DNA from: a virus
Length of the DNA stretch: 64,000 bases
Virus record (IMG/VR): IMGVR_UViG_3300013006_000024
Span: 1-64,000 of that record
Strand: one strand, 5' to 3'
Position 1 is the stretch's first letter. Each line of letters starts with the position of its first letter. Of this stretch, positions 3,023 to 41,419 are shown piece by piece. Made by a program: the position numbers and the translations under genes. Below the pieces are notes generated by a model, which worked only from the letters and a program-made list of their open reading frames with translations, had not been told where the DNA came from and ran no database searches.

Positions 3023-3760
3023 ATGGCAATTAATTCAACAAACAGTAATTACGTCAATATTAGTAATTTACCGCAAACACAAGAAGCAGTAAATACTGAT
3101 TTATTAATTTTACAAACTGAAAATGGTACTCAAACTATTACATTTGATAATTTCAATGTAGTAAAGACGGATGCTGTTGGAAATGCTACTATTATTGGTG
3201 GGGTTACCGGTACAGGAGCGCAGTTTAATACGCTTTCTGCTTTAAGTTATGTCTCATCCTCTCAATACTATGCAAATAGTATTCCCGGGTATACAGCATT
3301 AAATGGATTTTATAATAGGTTTACTCTTAATAGCGGCATTGTTACAAGCGCCACTTATGTTGGTCGTGCAGATGATGATTATAACTACCTAACTCAAACA
3401 TTCATACCCACTTTAACCGCTGAACAAAATACAATTTATACTAGAACTATTGATAAAGTTGGATTAGCATTAGCTAATCCTAATTCTGAAGGCGTTACTA
3501 TAACTATAGGAAGCTTTTTTACTGATTATCCATTTGTTGGCGCGGCAAATATTAAGCCATGGCATTTTACAATTGCATTAGACAATAAGCTATCTGGATG
3601 CCCGTATATACCACCTGGTTCGATAGCAAATAACGGTACCGGTGGATTAAGATTCGACGTTGTTTTCCCAGCACGTAATGTTCCGAGTATTAATGTTTAT
3701 GCGCGTGTCTTAATTACATATACCATAAATAACGGTACTTATAATTTCGGATCGCAATAA
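3023..3760 (+). CDS. Putative virion structural/fibre-associated protein
   Basis: TATAAATA 6 nt upstream; N-terminal VNISNLPQ...DLLILQTENGTQTIT resembles the ISxL(P) fibre-anchor motif; beta-rich T/N/G composition. Confidence 0.45.
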   Translation: MAINSTNSNYVNISNLPQTQEAVNTDLLILQTENGTQTITFDNFNVVKTDAVGNATIIGGVTGTGAQFNTLSALSYVSSSQYYANSIPGYTALNGFYNRFTLNSGIVTSATYVGRADDDYNYLTQTFIPTLTAEQNTIYTRTIDKVGLALANPNSEGVTITIGSFFTDYPFVGAANIKPWHFTIALDNKLSGCPYIPPGSIANNGTGGLRFDVVFPARNVPSINVYARVLITYTINNGTYNFGSQ

Positions 3761-32999: not shown

Positions 33000-33001
33000 T
33001 T

Positions 33002-33910
33002 TTAATCTCCATAGCTAAACCCACCTGAGTCATAACCACGGCGACCTGGCAGTGCACCCATTCCACGCAATTCACTGGTCGGTAAATCATCTTCTGGATA
33101 TTCTTCAACAGTTTCTACTTCACCGGTACCTTCACCTTCTTTTTTCTCCGAAGCGGGGGTATAGCTGCTTTTAAATTTTAATGAATCAATAAAGTCTTGA
33201 ACAACTTCTTTATCATTAGCCATTTTTTGATCATACGCACGCGTTATAGCCTCAATTACTTCATTTTTAAGTTCAGGTGAATCATAAATGTCGCCTTTCT
33301 CGATAGTAATTTCATCAGGAAGCTCAACAAATATTGGCATCCATTCTTTAATAAAACGTGCATTTGGATTTTTTACAAAACTATTTGCTTTTGGTACTTC
33401 AGGTTGTGCAGGAGATGTACCAGGAGTACCAGGTGCTATAACAGCTTTACCCTTTACTCCTGCATCAACTGCTTGCTTGACTTGATGGGGGCTAGCAGCT
33501 GTACCGCCTTCTGCATCTACTCTTACTACATTTAAAAGATTGTCAACGATGCGCGCAGTATATTTAGCCTCCGTACCACCAAGCTTAAGCTCGTTTTTAA
33601 TTAAATTCTCTAATTCAGTTCTAAATTTCATCTTAGAACCCGGGTAAAACAAATCATATTCTTTACCGTCAACAACATGCTTTGCAGGTTTAAAAAGTTT
33701 AGTCTTTATAGCAGCCAGCAAACGATTAGCAACATCAGCCATAGGTTTACCTTCTTTTGCCGCTACTTTGCCGATTCCATATCCCTTGCCAGGTGCTGAT
33801 TCGAAGTCACCAGAATACCCTATATCACCCATTCCATATATGGGAGCTTCAGAAATAACAGGTTTTTTAACTAAATACGCTTCAAATATGAGTTTACAGT
33901 CCTTATTCAT
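33002..33910 (-). CDS. Hypothetical late protein, possible internal head protein
   Basis: TAAATA 7 nt upstream; MNKDCKLIFEAYL...ISE-A. Confidence 0.5.
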   Translation of the reverse strand: MNKDCKLIFEAYLVKKPVISEAPIYGMGDIGYSGDFESAPGKGYGIGKVAAKEGKPMADVANRLLAAIKTKLFKPAKHVVDGKEYDLFYPGSKMKFRTELENLIKNELKLGGTEAKYTARIVDNLLNVVRVDAEGGTAASPHQVKQAVDAGVKGKAVIAPGTPGTSPAQPEVPKANSFVKNPNARFIKEWMPIFVELPDEITIEKGDIYDSPELKNEVIEAITRAYDQKMANDKEVVQDFIDSLKFKSSYTPASEKKEGEGTGEVETVEEYPEDDLPTSELRGMGALPGRRGYDSGGFSYGD

Positions 33911-33943
33911 CTTGAAATATTTATTCTATTTAATATAATAATT

Positions 33944-33950
33944 AGGAGGT
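33944..33950 (+). promoter_or_regulatory. Shine-Dalgarno AGGAGGT
   Basis: Perfect SD, 8 nt before ATT-TGC-GGA. Confidence 0.8.
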
Positions 33951-33958
33951 ATAATACT

Positions 33959-34648
33959 ATTTGCGGAATATTTGGAGCTAAAGAATTTACAAACTATGTA
34001 AATCTCTATAAGAGTAATAAGAAAAGAGGCACCTTTTCATATGGCGGACTACTGATCGGTAATAAGATACATGCTATTCTAAAGTCACCTGGTACTGCAA
34101 CTCTTTCTAAAAAGCTAGTTATTGAGTATGGCAAGAAAAGAAGGAACATTACAGATTTTAATTATTTCTTAGGTCATACGCAAGCGCCAACATCATCACA
34201 AAGAGCATTCTCACCTACAACGTCACATCCTTTTCAATATAAAGATTGGCTTATAGCACATAATGGTGTTCTAACAAACCATAAGGAGCTTAAGCTATTA
34301 ATTAGCAATAAAAAAAGCTATAACGTTGTCGATTCGTCAATTATCGCACCATTATTAGATATGCATCTCAAGAAGCATGGTGATGAGATTCTAGCTATTA
34401 TTAAAACTCTTTCACTTTTAAAAGGAACATTCGGTCTTTGGATCTATAATCAAAAATCAGGCCACGTATATATAGCTAGATCTGGTAGTACACTTTATGC
34501 GGATTTTTTAAATAATGAATTTTCTTCTTTACCAAATCCAGATAATGAGTTTGTAGAAGTTGAGGAGGGTTTATTGTACCTCTTAACAAAAGAAGGTATA
34601 ACTAGTGTAGGTAAGTTCACAACAAACTCACCGTTTTTTAATCCATGA
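33959..34648 (+). CDS. Class II (Ntn) glutamine amidotransferase with ATT start codon
   Basis: Open frame extends 134 codons upstream of the track's ATG 34361: (ATT)CGIFG...KRG...GHTQAPT...HPF...AHNG...VDS; AGGAGGT 8 nt upstream. Confidence 0.85.
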   Translation: MCGIFGAKEFTNYVNLYKSNKKRGTFSYGGLLIGNKIHAILKSPGTATLSKKLVIEYGKKRRNITDFNYFLGHTQAPTSSQRAFSPTTSHPFQYKDWLIAHNGVLTNHKELKLLISNKKSYNVVDSSIIAPLLDMHLKKHGDEILAIIKTLSLLKGTFGLWIYNQKSGHVYIARSGSTLYADFLNNEFSSLPNPDNEFVEVEEGLLYLLTKEGITSVGKFTTNSPFFNP

Positions 34649-35322
34649 ACAATATTGCTTTTTATTTTGCTACTAGAAGCTCGGATGCTAAACAAACTTC
34701 AGCATATAAGTCACTTATTCGATTGAAAGATAAAATAGATATCTTATTTGATGCTGATAATAAAGAAGGATTAAGCAAAAAATATAATGAAATTTTAAAT
34801 GAATATAGAAACGATTATAAATTTATCGTTTTTGTTCATGATGATGTTTATGTTGACGATCTTGCAGTAAATGAAAAGCTAGAGAAAGCTCATCAAGATT
34901 TTGATATAGTCGGGCTTGCCGGTGGCGTTAATCCGAAGATCCAGAAATTAGCTTTATGGCATTTAATGTGTGGTGGGTTTAATGGAAATAATTTGAGGGG
35001 CGCGGTAGCCCATCCTTGTAATGATCATGGACAGATATTTATGACGTCGTTTGGACCTACCCCTGCAAGAGTAGCTATACTTGATGGGCTATTCATGAGT
35101 ATTAACACAAAAAGAACCAAACAGGTCGACTGGAAGTTTAATGAAAATTATACCTTTCATCATTATGATATAGCTAGTAGCTTAGACGCAAATGTTAAGA
35201 AACTAAAATTAGGGGTAGCACCTATATGGGTCGTACACAAATCGCCCGGACTTTTAAATACGAATGATGAAATATTTGTATCGAGCCAAGATAAGTTTTT
35301 AAAAGAATACAGTGGTTATTGA
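34645..35322 (+). CDS. GT-A glycosyltransferase-like protein
   Basis: GLSKKYN, FVHDDV, IVGLAG, ILDGLFM, FHHYDI; ATGA overlap with the amidotransferase. Confidence 0.7.
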   Translation: MNNIAFYFATRSSDAKQTSAYKSLIRLKDKIDILFDADNKEGLSKKYNEILNEYRNDYKFIVFVHDDVYVDDLAVNEKLEKAHQDFDIVGLAGGVNPKIQKLALWHLMCGGFNGNNLRGAVAHPCNDHGQIFMTSFGPTPARVAILDGLFMSINTKRTKQVDWKFNENYTFHHYDIASSLDANVKKLKLGVAPIWVVHKSPGLLNTNDEIFVSSQDKFLKEYSGY

Positions 35323-35346
35323 TTACTATAAAGTCTAGTATATCAT
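35319..35346 (+). promoter_or_regulatory. Sigma70-like promoter TTGATT-N16-TATCAT (gp41)
   Basis: 6 nt before ATG. Confidence 0.65.
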
Positions 35347-35352
35347 AGAGTA

Positions 35353-36681
35353 ATGGCTAAGCTAGATTTAGATTATTTTGAAGTTATTATAGCTTACAAA
35401 TCTCTTACAGACGAATCATATTTAGCTTCTATCGTCGATTACATTAAACCTTTGTATTTTAAAAACAAAGACATAAAAGTTGTTTTTGAAATTATTAGAG
35501 AGTTTTATGAAAAAAGAGCGACATGCCCTACTCTAACAGAAATTAAATCTTATTTAACTACCGATGAACTTAAAAGTTCTTTTAAGAATGCCGTTAATCT
35601 TTTTAATAATATTGAAAAGAATTTTAATGTCGATGAACTTACTGCTAATACCGAAATTTTTATTAAGGAAAAATCAGTCTACCATACAATGATGGATGTG
35701 GTGGATGATATTAATAAAAACAGCGTAGATACATCTAAAATATTAGATAAGTTTGAAAAAGCATGCAATATCTCGCTTACTACTGATATTGGGTTAGATC
35801 TGTTTAATGATGTTAGTAAAGTAATTGATAATCTCCATTCTAATGAAAAATATATTCCCTCTAAGTGGAAATGGTTAGACGATAAAATCGGCGGTGGGTT
35901 TTTAGAGGAAGGTAAAGCCCTTTATTTGTTTGCCGGTGAAACTAATATTGGTAAGAGTATATTTCTAGGTAATATTGCGGTAAACATCGCTGAACAAGGA
36001 AAAACAGTATTATTGGTTTCTCTTGAAATGCCAGAAATTATTTACGCTAAACGCCTTTGCTCTAGTGTATCAAAGATTCCCCTTGGACAGCTTAAAATTG
36101 AATCCGAGACCCTTAAGACTCAGTTAGACGAATATTGTATCGAGCACCCTAATTCAAAAATTATTATTAAAGAATTTCCGCCCGCAACTATAACTGCAAA
36201 TCATCTCAAAGCATTTACAAAAAAACTAATTCAAAAGGGAATTAAGATTGATGCGATAGTTCTTGATTATGTTAATTTGCTTAACTCTACCTACGGTGAT
36301 AGTAGTTATGAGAGAATTAAGATATGTACTGAGCAGCTAAGAGCTATTTCTTATCACTTTAATTGCCCTATTATATCTGCAACTCAGCTTAATAGAGAAG
36401 GCTATGATATATCTGATCCCGGCTTAAAGACTATATCCGAAAGTATTGGACTTGCTATGACCGGTGACGTTATTTTAAGTATTTGGCAAGAAGATACAGA
36501 TAAAGAGCTAGGTGTTATAAAGATGGGCTTTATGAAAAATAGATTCGGTCCAAATTTCGGTCATTGTGCAATGCGTATAGACTATTCTACATTAACTATT
36601 ACCGAAGACGAACATATAAATGATACGGAGGCGAGCACATCTTCTATTAGTACTTTGTCTAAATTAGCAATAGATAATTGA
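35353..36681 (+). CDS. gp41: Replicative DnaB-like helicase
   Basis: AGETNIGKS, VSLEM, LDYVNLL, SATQLNR, SESIGL, KNRFG. Confidence 0.92.
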   Translation: MAKLDLDYFEVIIAYKSLTDESYLASIVDYIKPLYFKNKDIKVVFEIIREFYEKRATCPTLTEIKSYLTTDELKSSFKNAVNLFNNIEKNFNVDELTANTEIFIKEKSVYHTMMDVVDDINKNSVDTSKILDKFEKACNISLTTDIGLDLFNDVSKVIDNLHSNEKYIPSKWKWLDDKIGGGFLEEGKALYLFAGETNIGKSIFLGNIAVNIAEQGKTVLLVSLEMPEIIYAKRLCSSVSKIPLGQLKIESETLKTQLDEYCIEHPNSKIIIKEFPPATITANHLKAFTKKLIQKGIKIDAIVLDYVNLLNSTYGDSSYERIKICTEQLRAISYHFNCPIISATQLNREGYDISDPGLKTISESIGLAMTGDVILSIWQEDTDKELGVIKMGFMKNRFGPNFGHCAMRIDYSTLTITEDEHINDTEASTSSISTLSKLAIDN

Positions 36682-36686
36682 TTTTT

Positions 36687-36694
36687 TATAAATA
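36687..36694 (+). promoter_or_regulatory. Late promoter TATAAATA upstream of the bS21 operon
   Basis: Exact consensus in the intergenic gap after gp41. Confidence 0.6.
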
Positions 36695-36706
36695 ATTAAT
36701 AATTAG

Positions 36707-37003
36707 TTGTCTACAGTGAAAGGCTACGATCCCTCAGAACAAATAACTGAGTTCGAACAAAACCATACGTTTTTGTCGTTCTGCTCTTTAATAACATTAA
36801 TGCATACAAAAAAGTTGAATTTAGCGAATGTGTTCATATTATTATTAAAGAGTAAGGAAATAAGGGAGCTATTTAAAATGCATTGTGAACTTAAAAACGA
36901 TTTTTCAGCAGTAAAATTTTTCTTGCAATTCGACTCAGGATTGTATAAAAGTAAGTACATTATGAAGTTTTTAAATTCCTGCAAAAAGAGTTTATTTTTA
37001 TGA
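36707..37003 (+). CDS. Hypothetical protein
   Basis: Follows TATAAATA at 36687-36694; ATGA overlap with the bS21 gene; start codon uncertain. Confidence 0.5.
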   Translation: MSTVKGYDPSEQITEFEQNHTFLSFCSLITLMHTKKLNLANVFILLLKSKEIRELFKMHCELKNDFSAVKFFLQFDSGLYKSKYIMKFLNSCKKSLFL

Positions 37004-37209
37004 GACCAGTAAATGTTGAAGTTAAGTTGGATAAGAAGAAGTGCACCGATAAAGCATATTTTGATAAAATGTGGAATAAATTTAGTAGAGAATATATGAA
37101 CTCTGGTATTGTTGAAGAATTGAGATTGAAGAGGTGTTATTACAAGCCAAGTATGTTACGCAAGATAAAGAAGCAGATAGTTAGAAACAAGTGGAAGCAT
37201 TTGCGTTGA
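37000..37209 (+). CDS. rpsU: Phage-encoded ribosomal protein bS21-like
   Basis: 69 aa basic; FDKMWNKFSRE...SGIVEELRLKRCYYKPSMLRK matches the bS21 pattern F.R....GI..E.R....Y.KPS..R. Confidence 0.75.
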   Translation: MRPVNVEVKLDKKKCTDKAYFDKMWNKFSREYMNSGIVEELRLKRCYYKPSMLRKIKKQIVRNKWKHLR

Positions 37210-37847
37210 TCACCGAGTTCGATAAATTAATTTACAATACATTTTTAAGGGTTTCGCGATCGAAAAACAAATTACCTTTTAAATTGCGTAAAAATTTTGA
37301 TAAACTTAATAACGAAACATTTGTATCAATTAAAAAGGTTAGTAATTTTTTAAAAAGATTTCCGCATATTAAGATTGAAGAGTATTTTAAAGCGCCGTAT
37401 TCTATATACTCTGACGAAGAATATTTTCCTTTAGATTATTATCACACTCTTAAGGCTACTAAAGCATATACATTGTTTAATAAGAAGCAAGAAAATTTAG
37501 ATCCAGATTCTGATGAACAATTAATCGGTATAAAAGAATCTATTTTGTTTATTAAGAATTTTTGTATAGCTAAAAATCTCTCTCCTGCAAATTACATTAA
37601 TCATAGAACAAATAATGAATATTCTTTTATTCTTCATCTAAAAGAACATAAAGTGAACATATATACGCTTTTAGGGTATTCCAATTTTGAGAAAACTATA
37701 AAACAAAGAGATGCCGAGGTAGTCAAATTTATTATAGGCGAGAATCTTTATAATAACATTTCTGTATATAGAACAAAATTATATAATTCTCAAAAAGCTT
37801 CTAAATTAGTTGAACTCGGTCTCAAAAAAATTTTAAATAATGCTTGA
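37191..37847 (+). CDS. Hypothetical protein, possibly gp59-like helicase loader
   Basis: About 215 aa, basic, immediately upstream of gp32 as gp59 is in T4; no motif proof. Confidence 0.35.
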   Translation: MEAFALITEFDKLIYNTFLRVSRSKNKLPFKLRKNFDKLNNETFVSIKKVSNFLKRFPHIKIEEYFKAPYSIYSDEEYFPLDYYHTLKATKAYTLFNKKQENLDPDSDEQLIGIKESILFIKNFCIAKNLSPANYINHRTNNEYSFILHLKEHKVNIYTLLGYSNFEKTIKQRDAEVVKFIIGENLYNNISVYRTKLYNSQKASKLVELGLKKILNNA

Positions 37848-37880
37848 TTTAAAATTATAAGCTATTATCATAATAATAAT

Positions 37881-38720
37881 ATGAGTACATTTACCGCATC
37901 GATGTTTGAGAGCATTAAAGGCGCTCTTACTAAAAATAACGAAACCGCTTCTTCTAAAATTAAGGATTATTTGCGCTGTGAGGTAGGAAATACCTATACA
38001 GTCCGACTTCTTCCTAATGTAAAAGACCCATCGAAGACATTTTTCCATTATTATTCTTATGGGTGGAATAGCCTTACGACTGGTCAACTAGTCACAGCTA
38101 TTAGCCCGACTACTTGGAATCAACGCGATCCTATTGCCGAGGAACGCTATCGTGTATTACGCAACGGTACTGAAAAAGAAAAAGAGAAAGCACTTGCTAT
38201 TAAGCGCCGTGAAAATTGGCTTGTAAGTGTATATGTTATTAACGATCCGGTTAATGCCGACAATAACGGGAAGATTAAGCTTCTGCGCTTTGGTCGTCAG
38301 CTTCATAAAATTGTTATGGACGCTATTGAGGGCGAAGAAGCCGCTGAGCTTGGCCCGCGTATTTTCGATCTTTCACCTAAGGGCTGTAATCTTAGAATTA
38401 AGGTTGAGAAGCAGGGTGATTATCCTACATATGTTTCTTCGAAGTTCTCTACTCCTAAGGAAATCGAAGGTCTGGAAGAAGATGACTTTAAGAAGATCTA
38501 CAATAATGCCTTTGATCTTGAGTCATATGTATCTGTCAAGAGTTACGATGAACTCAAGACTATACTTGATGAGCATTATCATGGTACTAAAGACGTTGAT
38601 GATACTGCTGATGCACCGGTGCAAGTCACAACAAGCGCACCAACACCTGTTGCTAAAAAAGCTACAGTAAAAGTCGCTGAAAGCGATGAATCAATAGATA
38701 ACCTTTTAAAAGATCTATAA
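37881..38720 (+). CDS. gp32: Single-stranded DNA-binding protein
   Basis: VRLLP, DPI, VYVINDP...NNGK, IFDL...GCNL.IK, Y..SKF, acidic tail ending IDNLLKDL. Confidence 0.88.
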   Translation: MSTFTASMFESIKGALTKNNETASSKIKDYLRCEVGNTYTVRLLPNVKDPSKTFFHYYSYGWNSLTTGQLVTAISPTTWNQRDPIAEERYRVLRNGTEKEKEKALAIKRRENWLVSVYVINDPVNADNNGKIKLLRFGRQLHKIVMDAIEGEEAAELGPRIFDLSPKGCNLRIKVEKQGDYPTYVSSKFSTPKEIEGLEEDDFKKIYNNAFDLESYVSVKSYDELKTILDEHYHGTKDVDDTADAPVQVTTSAPTPVAKKATVKVAESDESIDNLLKDL

Positions 38721-39134: not shown

Positions 39135-39866
39135 ATGAATCTTAAAATAGCTAATAAAGATATTTTTTTAAATAACTTTTTAACACCGTTAAGTAAGGTA
39201 ACGGATAGTGCAGTAATAAATGTTAGTAAGGGTAAGTTGAGCTCGCTTATTTCTACGAGCGATAATACAATTATTGTTGGTGTTAATTTTACAGACAGTA
39301 GTATTGATGCTGTTAAATGTCTCAATATACCCGATGTAAAGAAATTTGTTAGAGTTATTTCTTGTATTGAGCATGATACATTTGAGCTAGATATTTCATC
39401 GAACTTTATTGGGTATTCGTCTGATAGCGTTAGGTTTAAGTACCATCTATACGATGATAATATTATTACTACACCTAAGCTAAACATGGAAAAGATTAAA
39501 ACTCTTGAATTTGATGGCTCCTTTACGTTGCCTTATACATCAGTTATTAGCCTCATAAAAGGCAGTTCTATAAGTACGGAGACAAATAAGATTTATATAT
39601 CTGTTAAAGATACTACAGTTTTCGGTGAACTAACGGATAAAACGAGAAGCAACATAGATTCGTATGGTATAAAGATTGCTGAAGATTATAAGGGCACTCA
39701 ATTTGCCTTACCTTTACCGTTGAACTTTGAAATATTTAGAATAATTTCTTCTATGAGATTCAAAGAATTACAATCCCAAATAATAACAAAATTAGGAGTA
39801 ATGACATTAGATCTTAAACTTGAAAATTCTGACTTTAAGTTTGTTATCTCTGCATTAGCAAATTAA
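39135..39866 (+). CDS. gp45: Sliding clamp (gp45/PCNA-like)
   Basis: 243 aa, LNIPDVKKF motif, two-domain beta/alpha pattern, replication context. Confidence 0.65.
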   Translation: MNLKIANKDIFLNNFLTPLSKVTDSAVINVSKGKLSSLISTSDNTIIVGVNFTDSSIDAVKCLNIPDVKKFVRVISCIEHDTFELDISSNFIGYSSDSVRFKYHLYDDNIITTPKLNMEKIKTLEFDGSFTLPYTSVISLIKGSSISTETNKIYISVKDTTVFGELTDKTRSNIDSYGIKIAEDYKGTQFALPLPLNFEIFRIISSMRFKELQSQIITKLGVMTLDLKLENSDFKFVISALAN

Positions 39867-40582: not shown

Positions 40583-41419
40583 ATGAGAGTATTATTGCTT
40601 GGTAAAGGATTCATTGGTACTAAATTAGGTCAATTTTTACAGACAGCTGATGTTGACGTTTTTCATATTAGTCAGCAAGAAATAGATTATACAAATAGTA
40701 AAACGTTATCACGTATGTTTCGTGATTATAATTTTACACATGTAGTTAATTGCTGTGGGTATACCGGTACTCCTAATGTTGATGGTTGTGAAAAAAATAA
40801 AGAAACCTGTTGGAATCTAAACGTTACTGTGCCAAATGAAATTGATAAAATTGCAGATAGACATAATAAAAAAATTATTCATATTTCAAGTGGGTGTATA
40901 TATACAGGCTACGAAAAAGAGTTTCTAGAAACAGATCAACCCAATTTTGGTCTTTATAATCCGCAATCTAGTTTTTACAGTAAATCAAAACATGCTTTTG
41001 AAACAGTTATTGATACTAAACAATCAGCTATTCTTAGAATTCGTATGCCTGTAACGTCAGTTAAAGAGGATAAAAATTATCTATACAAACTCTTTAAGTA
41101 TGATAATTTAATTAGCTATAAGAATAGCATTACATGCATTGACGATCTTAATCGCTTAGTCAAGCATTTATTAGATAATTTTATCCCAGGTATCTTTAAC
41201 GCTGTTAATACAAAGCCTATAACTGCAAAAGAAGTAGTAGACATATTTAAAAAATATAATAAAGTTAATCCTAATTGGAATTTTGTTGAAATGGACGATC
41301 TAGATATAGTAGCTAACCGATCTAATTGTATTCTCAGTACTCAAAAATTACAGCAGCATGGGCTAGAATTTTCCGATACCTTTGAAACAGTTGAAAAATA
41401 TATACAGGAATTATGTTAA
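40583..41419 (+). CDS. RmlD-like NDP-sugar reductase/epimerase (extended SDR)
   Basis: LLGKGFIG, NCCGYTGTPNVDGCE, HISSGCIY, YSKSK, LRIRMP. Confidence 0.8.
   Translation: MRVLLLGKGFIGTKLGQFLQTADVDVFHISQQEIDYTNSKTLSRMFRDYNFTHVVNCCGYTGTPNVDGCEKNKETCWNLNVTVPNEIDKIADRHNKKIIHISSGCIYTGYEKEFLETDQPNFGLYNPQSSFYSKSKHAFETVIDTKQSAILRIRMPVTSVKEDKNYLYKLFKYDNLISYKNSITCIDDLNRLVKHLLDNFIPGIFNAVNTKPITAKEVVDIFKKYNKVNPNWNFVEMDDLDIVANRSNCILSTQKLQQHGLEFSDTFETVEKYIQELC

Follow-up and report, generated by a model that had tools for sequence, protein, structure and literature searches.

Comparative evidence for a maintained ATT start codon behind a strong Shine-Dalgarno sequence in an amidotransferase-like gene of a T4-like lake phage

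Translation starts at AUU are already known from infC and pcnB, as is the compensation of a weak start codon by the Shine-Dalgarno (SD) sequence in front of it. Initiation factor 3 (IF3) discriminates start codons that lack a 3′ G, and SD sequences act best at a spacing of 4-9 nucleotides (nt; PMC4611024); among the start codons tested, mRNA with AUU has proved the most sensitive to IF3, and infC autoregulates through this property (PMC5499595). A 5′ AUG is required by leaderless mRNAs, whose initiation is IF2-dependent and antagonised by IF3 (PMC4611024; PMC5622118). Across genomes, Belinky, Rogozin and Koonin (2017) found weaker starts to go with stronger or more conserved SDs, as a weak genome-wide trend for GUG and UUG, and recorded a change from AUG to AUU at 1 of 61,358 starts, without resolving coupled switches (PMC5622118). 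In Flavobacterium johnsoniae, rpsU stands alone in having an extended SD, the remaining genes being without one, and bS21 is involved there (PMC9976891; PMC13000453). Here we describe a locus that brings several of these features together, in a 64,000-nt stretch of viral DNA (positions 1 to 64,000 of IMG/VR record IMGVR_UViG_3300013006_000024; hereafter the window), where a gene on the plus strand for a class II, N-terminal nucleophile (Ntn) amidotransferase-like protein (33959-34648) begins with ATT behind a strong SD.

The frame of this gene is open back to 33875 and holds no ATG, GTG or TTG before 34361; 134 open codons precede the ATG at 34361, the first canonical start, and gene callers report only the 95-amino-acid open reading frame (ORF) that begins there. 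The ATT at 33959-33961, with 28 open codons upstream of it in the window, is followed by TGC GGA ATA TTT GGA, in which TGC (33962-33964) is the codon of the catalytic Cys, predicted to become the N-terminal residue of the mature enzyme once Met has been removed. Before it stands the SD, AGGAGGT (33944-33950), with an 8-nt spacer to ATT; this lies within the 4-9 nt range, and the predicted complementarity to the 16S 3′ end exceeds the 5 nt required of an SD. The base at -1 is T (33958); U in this place can base-pair with the initiator tRNA at A37 (PMC10018350). Further upstream, a -35-like TTGAAA (33912-33917) and a -10 hexamer TATAAT (33934-33939), separated by 16 nt, agree with the sigma-70 consensus at 11 of 12 positions and constitute the best match of this type in 33000-37300. 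Of these elements, the ATT with its following codons, the SD and the promoter had been named in a preliminary description of this DNA and are present as described. All lie in or directly after a 48-nt intergenic region that the gene has in common with a divergent gene on the minus strand. Because only 4-5 nt separate the -10 box from the SD, transcription is predicted to start at about 33945-33947, so that the mRNA would have its 5′ end at or inside the SD; an mRNA that starts with its SD would be unusual. The initiation region is without significant RNA structure (z = +0.63), and Rfam gave no match in 33000-38000. A second perfect TATAAT (33950-33955, plus strand) within the spacer between SD and ATT is found in the window and the near-identical locus L002 only and is probably due to chance, since the other members of the clade do not have it. 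A Bacteroidetes -7 box (TAnnTTTG) read from T-ATT-TG was rejected as its register does not fit.

DNA was compared at 75 distinct related viral loci. ATT is the start at 43 loci, all of which have a strong SD (AGGAGG, GGGAGG, GAGGAGG or GGAGG), and 29 loci have an ATG with no SD, mostly with a -10 box 6-9 nt before the ATG. ATG is also found with a weak SD at one locus (AAGGAA upstream) and with a distal SD-like sequence, GGAGGAG or GAGGAG, 12-13 nt upstream at two, L103 (L103:74) and L116 (L116:1501). Neither of the mixed states, ATT without an SD and ATG with a well-spaced SD, occurs at any of the 75 loci. The GAGG core lies 8-12 nt from ATT in all 40 ATT loci measured, and T occupies -1 in all 40 counted as well as in three added later, against A in 20 and T in 7 of the 30 ATG loci first counted. 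A similar division is seen in the placing of the -10 box, 18-20 nt from the start in ATT loci and 6-9 nt from it in 24 of 30 ATG loci, and the ATG-type relatives look leaderless or nearly so. A TTGAA(A/T) -35 element is kept in most related loci, the conserved promoter being TTGAAT-N16/17-TATAAT. The SD leaders come in at least five builds, including type ii leaders that have no TATAAT, and so do not represent a single frozen sequence. The leaders of L103 and L116 are built like those of the ATT type and may be intermediates between the two designs. Many ATT loci, among them L004, L038, L006 and L016, are closed by a stop in the same frame 1-6 codons ahead of ATT, and no canonical start comes between the two; translation must therefore begin at ATT.

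The history of the start codon was traced on an IQ-TREE phylogeny of the 75 proteins computed with the first residue excluded, which superseded a quick tree that lacked 5 loci and provided 4 independent pairs (p 0.125-0.25). Seven start-codon changes are needed on this tree, at least six of which are forced by supported branches, and a single origin of start type is found in 0% of bootstrap trees. The SD goes with ATT in all six independent pairs (sign test p=0.031), and T at -1 does so in 5.4 of the six on average and never in the opposite direction. For codons 2-134 in the window's 28-member ATT clade, the ratio of nonsynonymous to synonymous substitution rates (dN/dS) is 0.10, with dS about 1.75, from which it follows that the hidden 5′ part of the gene is coding and that synonymous sites are saturated. 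The first codon is nevertheless ATT in all 43 SD-bearing loci, never ATC, ATA or ATG, whereas Ile4 is encoded by either ATA or ATT; ATT and SD are retained together by all of the 28-member sister clade and by several further lineages. Since an SD with a well-spaced ATG is never seen, the weak start is kept behind the strong SD by selection. On the sequence evidence of these comparisons, ATT is confirmed as a real start codon under selection, and the phage enzyme that it opens has been mis-annotated. The preliminary description had left it to homologues to distinguish such a start from an ATG used throughout with no conserved SD, and the 43 loci that keep ATT and SD decide for the former.

Read from 33959, the coding sequence comprises 229 codons plus TGA, and its assignment draws on Pfam, profile, AlphaFold2, Foldseek and dN/dS results. 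The protein matches Pfam glutamine amidotransferase (GATase) family GATase_6 at 1.7e-7, in addition to GATase_7, and the family profile matches the glutaminase domain of Escherichia coli GlmS in the PDB (1xff, 1.4e-11). The invariant H-N-G and V-D-S-S of the family align to VHNG (N98-G99) and E-T-D-T-E (D123) of 1xff, and by this alignment the oxyanion-hole Asn-Gly and the alpha-amino-binding Asp are both present. An AlphaFold2 model from 69 homologues (predicted local distance difference test score, pLDDT, 92.6; predicted template modelling score, pTM, 0.91) is a single Ntn domain in which strand 1 begins at residue 3; the top Foldseek matches are 1xff (template modelling score, TM, 0.72), PurF and EgtC, with TM about 0.7 and probability 1.00 for each, and model and matches alike have the Ntn alpha-beta-beta-alpha sandwich. 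Cys2 is invariant in the 69 homologues, most of which begin MCGIFG. The class II Ntn amidotransferase likeness put forward in the preliminary description is thus borne out by Pfam, the 1xff profile, AlphaFold2 and Foldseek in agreement.

The protein has in common with GlmS, PurF and EgtC an N-terminal Cys, the Ntn fold, the HNG oxyanion motif and the Asp of D-S/T-E/S, but differs from them in that its 229 residues form a single domain with no fused acceptor (synthase) domain and in that its scores fall far below the NCBIfam equivalog cut-offs (glmS, 43 bits against 418; purF, 25 against 350; EgtC, 23 against 219). Because the acceptor domain is absent, it is filed as GATase-like, or as an Ntn amidohydrolase, and not as a complete amidotransferase; on the structural model, the product is a putative stand-alone class II GATase-like Ntn enzyme. 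Gln is invariant in the family motif G-H-T-Q-A-P-T-S, at what we take to be the position of Arg73, which binds the glutamine carboxylate, in H-T-R-W-A-T of GlmS, a stretch outside the hidden Markov model alignment to 1xff; the substrate may consequently not be free glutamine. Relatives have been found only in viral contigs, and two peptide patterns found none in 185,579 GTDB species genomes, which does not prove their absence but fits a virus-only family. Database proteins more than 60% identical are all either 196-216 amino acids long, cut at the N-terminus to an internal Met, Val or Leu, or run on, one run-on version reading ...ITICGIFG, and homologues of less than 60% identity begin MCGIFG. 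The clade's database proteins lack the catalytic Cys because gene callers disallow ATT, and the family has been misdescribed as a result.

Several explanations would deprive the ATT or the SD of the part assigned to them here. If ATT were a sequencing or assembly error, or the 5′ part of the gene a dead remnant of which only the 95-residue ORF is made, the output of gene callers in the window and the truncated proteins of relatives would be accounted for. This has next to no credibility, given that the same codon is present in 43 independent assemblies, that dN/dS is low over codons 2-134, that the full-length model is one confidently predicted Ntn domain, and that the 95-residue C-terminal piece is left without the catalytic Cys and most of the fold. 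Logan contigs from two further lake studies also span the ATT site, none differing there among the differences listed, and a further strain-variant contig keeps ATT-TGC and reads ...gacatATTTGCGGC. Chance and an ATG-to-ATT error, against which the SD had been adduced earlier, are both excluded by conservation, ATT being found in 43 of 43 SD-bearing homologues from many independent lake metagenomes. It had also been argued that the need for Cys at position 2 forces initiation at ATT. The start itself stands on the upstream stops of relatives, but the Cys argument does not hold by itself, as in class II enzymes the Cys may become the first mature residue either by following the initiator at once or by cleavage of a propeptide, and PurF of Bacillus subtilis has such a propeptide. 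Initiation at another codon upstream, with autocatalytic removal of a propeptide as in PurF and with ATT as an ordinary Ile codon, would agree with the 28 open codons in the window and with the in-frame ATG 36 nt (12 codons) upstream in L055 and L070. It is nonetheless most improbable: the open stretch in the window offers no canonical start, stops close that route 1-6 codons before ATT in many relatives, those named above included, the upstream region is a divergent promoter and is not conserved as codons, and at dS ~1.7 an ordinary Ile codon would have given way to ATA or ATC in places, yet ATT is invariant. The two loci with the ATG are of the ATT type, and it would give them a PurF-like propeptide of 12 residues; it is not conserved, since their closest siblings, L077 and L085, have ATA in its place.

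A further possibility concerns AGGAGG, which might serve as a signal near the promoter or in the initially transcribed sequence, or be bound by a protein, with AUU initiation driven in some other manner. The predicted transcription start falls in or adjoins this element, and the rest of the genome manages without SDs. Against this, each of the five leader builds has the element in a form that fits the universal anti-SD core, the element keeps a distance of 8-12 nt to the start and no fixed distance to the -10 box, which type ii leaders do not possess, and it is present only where the start codon is weak. We regard a role other than that of an SD as quite unlikely.

The genomic setting bears on the same question. 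The window comes from a 105-kb IMG/VR record of about 49% completeness, which by its gene content belongs to a distant T4-like myovirus (family-B DNA polymerase, sheath, terminase, gp32, UvsX-like RecA and DnaB) from lake water, according to the metadata of the run. The DNA polymerase is ~30% identical to those of pelagiphage, cyanophage and Sinorhizobium T4-like phages, the nearest cultured relatives by this protein being pelagiphages and cyanophages; the nearest record is Phage C48C1. Over the 105-kb record, 86 of 102 ORF starts are without an SD match of at least 4 nt and none of the 102 has GGAGG. The word AGGAGG is itself not rare (28 copies, against 21 ± 4 in shuffles), and the copy at 33944 is the sole GGAGG that is both intergenic and located 4-11 nt before a long open frame, in keeping with the earlier remark that this is the only strong SD. 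Apart from the amidotransferase gene, no long open frame in the genome is without a canonical start.

Elsewhere in the genome, the box TAAATA, which resembles the T4 late promoter core, precedes 18 ORF starts, by 5 nt in 13 and by 6 nt in 5, examples being the starts at 3023, 5699, 8599 (minus strand), 11692, 16100 (minus), 17248 (minus), 32402 (minus), 48938, 49632, 51958, 52533 and 62927 (minus). Sigma-70-like -10 boxes are located 6-9 nt before several early or replication genes: DnaB (35353), gp32 (37881) and the genes at 39135 and 43805. Transcripts of this phage are therefore predicted to be mostly leaderless or nearly so, and a largely leaderless transcriptome would explain the missing SDs. 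No Bacteroidia-style enrichment of A at -3, -6, -12 and -13 was seen beyond the TAAATA box. The longest-ORF start of the DNA polymerase (25968, plus strand) is a GTG with TATAAT 6 nt upstream; GTG would be unexpected if transcripts are leaderless, and the true start of this gene may differ.

These observations are best accommodated, we believe with considerable confidence, if the ATT at 33959 is a maintained start that forms, with the SD, a matched pair of weak codon and strong SD by which a set output is maintained. A short-leader mRNA with its 5′ end at or inside AGGAGGT would be made from an early promoter of the sigma-70 type, TTGAAA-N16-TATAAT; the 30S subunit would be recruited by pairing of SD and anti-SD at ideal spacing, and formylmethionyl-tRNA (fMet-tRNA) would read AUU with a mismatch at the third position, helped by the invariant U(-1)-A37 pairing. 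Removal of Met would then expose Cys1. As a poor start codon that is unable to work at a 5′ end, AUU needs a leader with a strong SD and U at -1. Sister phages would express the same gene from leaderless or near-leaderless mRNA in which AUG is obligatory and no SD is present, and lineages appear to have swapped between the two designs 6-7 times. Selection would hold output at a set, probably modest, level and the gene would remain in the IF3-antagonised class of initiation, the same control passing to the adjoining glycosyltransferase gene through an ATGA overlap.

Some points weigh against this view. The SD might be cut down to GAGGU, as the predicted transcription start falls within it. The junction of ATT and TGC also contains a TTG in another frame (33961-33963), which might draw initiation away from ATT. 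Contigs from RNA libraries reach only 33300-33762 and 35035-35185, outside the start region. There are only six independent pairs, so that p cannot fall below 0.03. Because SD, U(-1) and start codon lie within 15 nt, some of the switches may represent recombination of a whole 5′ cassette, and the same AACAGGAGAGGAGGGTAACGCT leader does occur at three places in the tree. The argument from the missing mixed state is not weakened by recombination, since the single T-to-G change that converts SD-ATT to SD-ATG must have arisen often at dS ~1.7. As to the TTG, it surpasses ATT as a start codon, follows the SD at 10 nt and opens a 6-codon ORF with a TAA stop at 33979-33981; this ORF (33961-33981) could act as a competing decoy.

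The preliminary description went further and proposed that translation of the enzyme is deliberately gated by the level of IF3 or by availability of the anti-SD. In this form the AUU/SD pair would be a sensor that turns the module on when IF3 is relaxed or when the anti-SD is free, on ribosomes without bS21 or with that of the phage, and would thereby set when during infection the amidotransferase-glycosyltransferase module is expressed. IF3 represses AUU more strongly than any other start codon, the property that underlies infC autoregulation (PMC5499595), both designs found in the family are of a kind antagonised by IF3, and the IF3-insensitive combination of a well-spaced SD with AUG was found at 0 of 75 loci; in Flavobacterium, rpsU, the single strong-SD gene, is preferred by bS21-free ribosomes (PMC9976891). 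IF3 gating is by analogy plausible. The phage does encode a bS21 homologue of 69 amino acids (37000-37209, plus strand; Pfam 28 bits, divergent), between DnaB and gp32 and 2.4 kb downstream. This gene itself, however, begins with ATG and has no SD, and bS21 does not track start type: homologues of the window's bS21 were found in 8 of 8 contigs of the window's clade tested and in five ATG/no-SD relatives, the ATG/no-SD relatives that carry a phage bS21 being L086, L067, L041, L095, L025 and L116, and in the most complete ATG-type contig (G014, 193 kb) a more canonical bS21 (61 bits) is encoded elsewhere. Co-occurrence of bS21 and start type is uninformative, with both types having bS21 and many of the contigs being fragments, and a specific link to bS21 is not supported, since ATG/no-SD relatives carry it too; the bS21 and anti-SD branch of the proposal accordingly finds no comparative backing. 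Sequestration of the anti-SD is documented in Bacteroidota (PMC7797042; PMC9976891), but the promoter TTGAAT-N16/17-TATAAT is not of the Bacteroidia TTTG / TAnnTTTG type, which argues against a Bacteroidota host and makes such sequestration in the host doubtful. Since matching of expression level gives the same pattern, we hold the sensor to be possible but rather less than probable.

A broader proposal is that nearly all genes of this phage use leaderless AUG initiation, antagonised by IF3 and favoured by IF2, and that this dependence is itself selected, gain of an SD then entailing a change to AUU, by which the gene would stay sensitive to IF3 and not escape as SD-AUG. We consider this doubtful. 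If true, the infected cell would have remodelled initiation, with low effective IF3 and perhaps phage bS21, and the ATT/SD gene, whose mRNA would begin directly with the SD, would be a built-in reporter of that state.

Compared with the systems described above, a matched pair of weak codon and strong SD at this locus would resemble infC and pcnB of E. coli in that the AUU start is conserved across relatives and has a ribosome-binding site upstream. It differs from infC in that the product is a phage metabolic enzyme, that AUU with SD alternates in evolution with what appears to be leaderless AUG and that the connection to IF3 is by analogy; because the gene encodes an enzyme and not IF3, no autoregulatory loop is obvious. 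The SD of rpsU serves autoregulation through anti-SD sequestration in Bacteroidia, whereas the lack of SDs in the window's phage seems to stem from leaderless or near-leaderless transcripts, its promoter is a classical sigma-70 one and bS21 accompanies both start types. With the leaderless mRNA of lambda cI, the likeness is shared by the ATG homologues and by most genes of the phage, which have a -10 or TAAATA box 5-9 nt before ATG; the window's gene departs from it in a leader ~12 nt longer that contains an SD, and in its non-AUG start. As opposed to the trend of Belinky et al. (2017), the coupling seen here is confined to a single gene family, is all-or-none and has switched 6-7 times.

The gene immediately downstream (34645-35322, plus strand) encodes a GT-A-like glycosyltransferase (Glyco_tranf_2_5) with an invariant HDD motif, and its ATG overlaps the stop of the amidotransferase gene as ATGA (34645-34648), which indicates that the glycosyltransferase is translationally coupled. 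Nearly all loci, whichever their start type, retain an overlap of this kind, ATGA, GTGA or TTGA; in L011, L014 and L019 the glycosyltransferase gene starts with GTG or TTG (GTGA or TTGA). A partner for the amidotransferase-like protein is suggested only by this conserved coupling. An RmlD-like homologue of dTDP-4-dehydrorhamnose reductase (40583-41419, plus strand) is located amid the replication genes and, with the GATase-like and glycosyltransferase pair, points to nucleotide-sugar chemistry that may be expressed with the replisome. On the other side, the divergent gene (33002-33910, minus strand) encodes 302 amino acids with no family match. A 7-nt spacer separates the late-type TAAATA box of this gene (33923-33918, minus strand) from the ATG that follows, and the -35-like TTGAAA of the amidotransferase gene overlaps this spacer.

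The window's bS21 found no match in the phage collection, and the protein atlas returned only viral bS21 clusters. The 318 nt between DnaB and bS21 (36682-36999) contain no convincing ORF and have no Rfam match, and a listed TTG ORF there (36707-37003) looks non-coding. There are no tRNA genes in the window and five elsewhere in the record (G000:C1:91301-92132 and 103660-103732), for Tyr-GTA, Arg-TCT, Leu-TAA, Thr-TGT and a 94-nt 'Ile' with anticodon TAT. The last has a long variable arm and is called Ile by ARAGORN; its class II shape is odd in combination with UAU. A phage-encoded initiator tRNA that reads AUU was considered and rejected, as none of the five has initiator features.

What is new here is an alternation, within one gene family, between apparently leaderless AUG and SD with U(-1) and AUU that is all-or-none and has been switched repeatedly, and its occurrence within a phage otherwise without SDs, where the mRNA probably begins with the SD. 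In this family the compensation of start codon by SD is all-or-none and extends to the -1 base, the one that pairs with A37. The family constitutes a natural experiment in which leaderless AUG can be set against a short leader with SD, U(-1) and AUU, and it supplies pairs of initiation regions with which the parts played by IF3 and phage bS21 in phage gene expression may be addressed. It also raises the questions of how a 5′-terminal SD would function and why this enzyme and the glycosyltransferase coupled to it would be kept at a set level.

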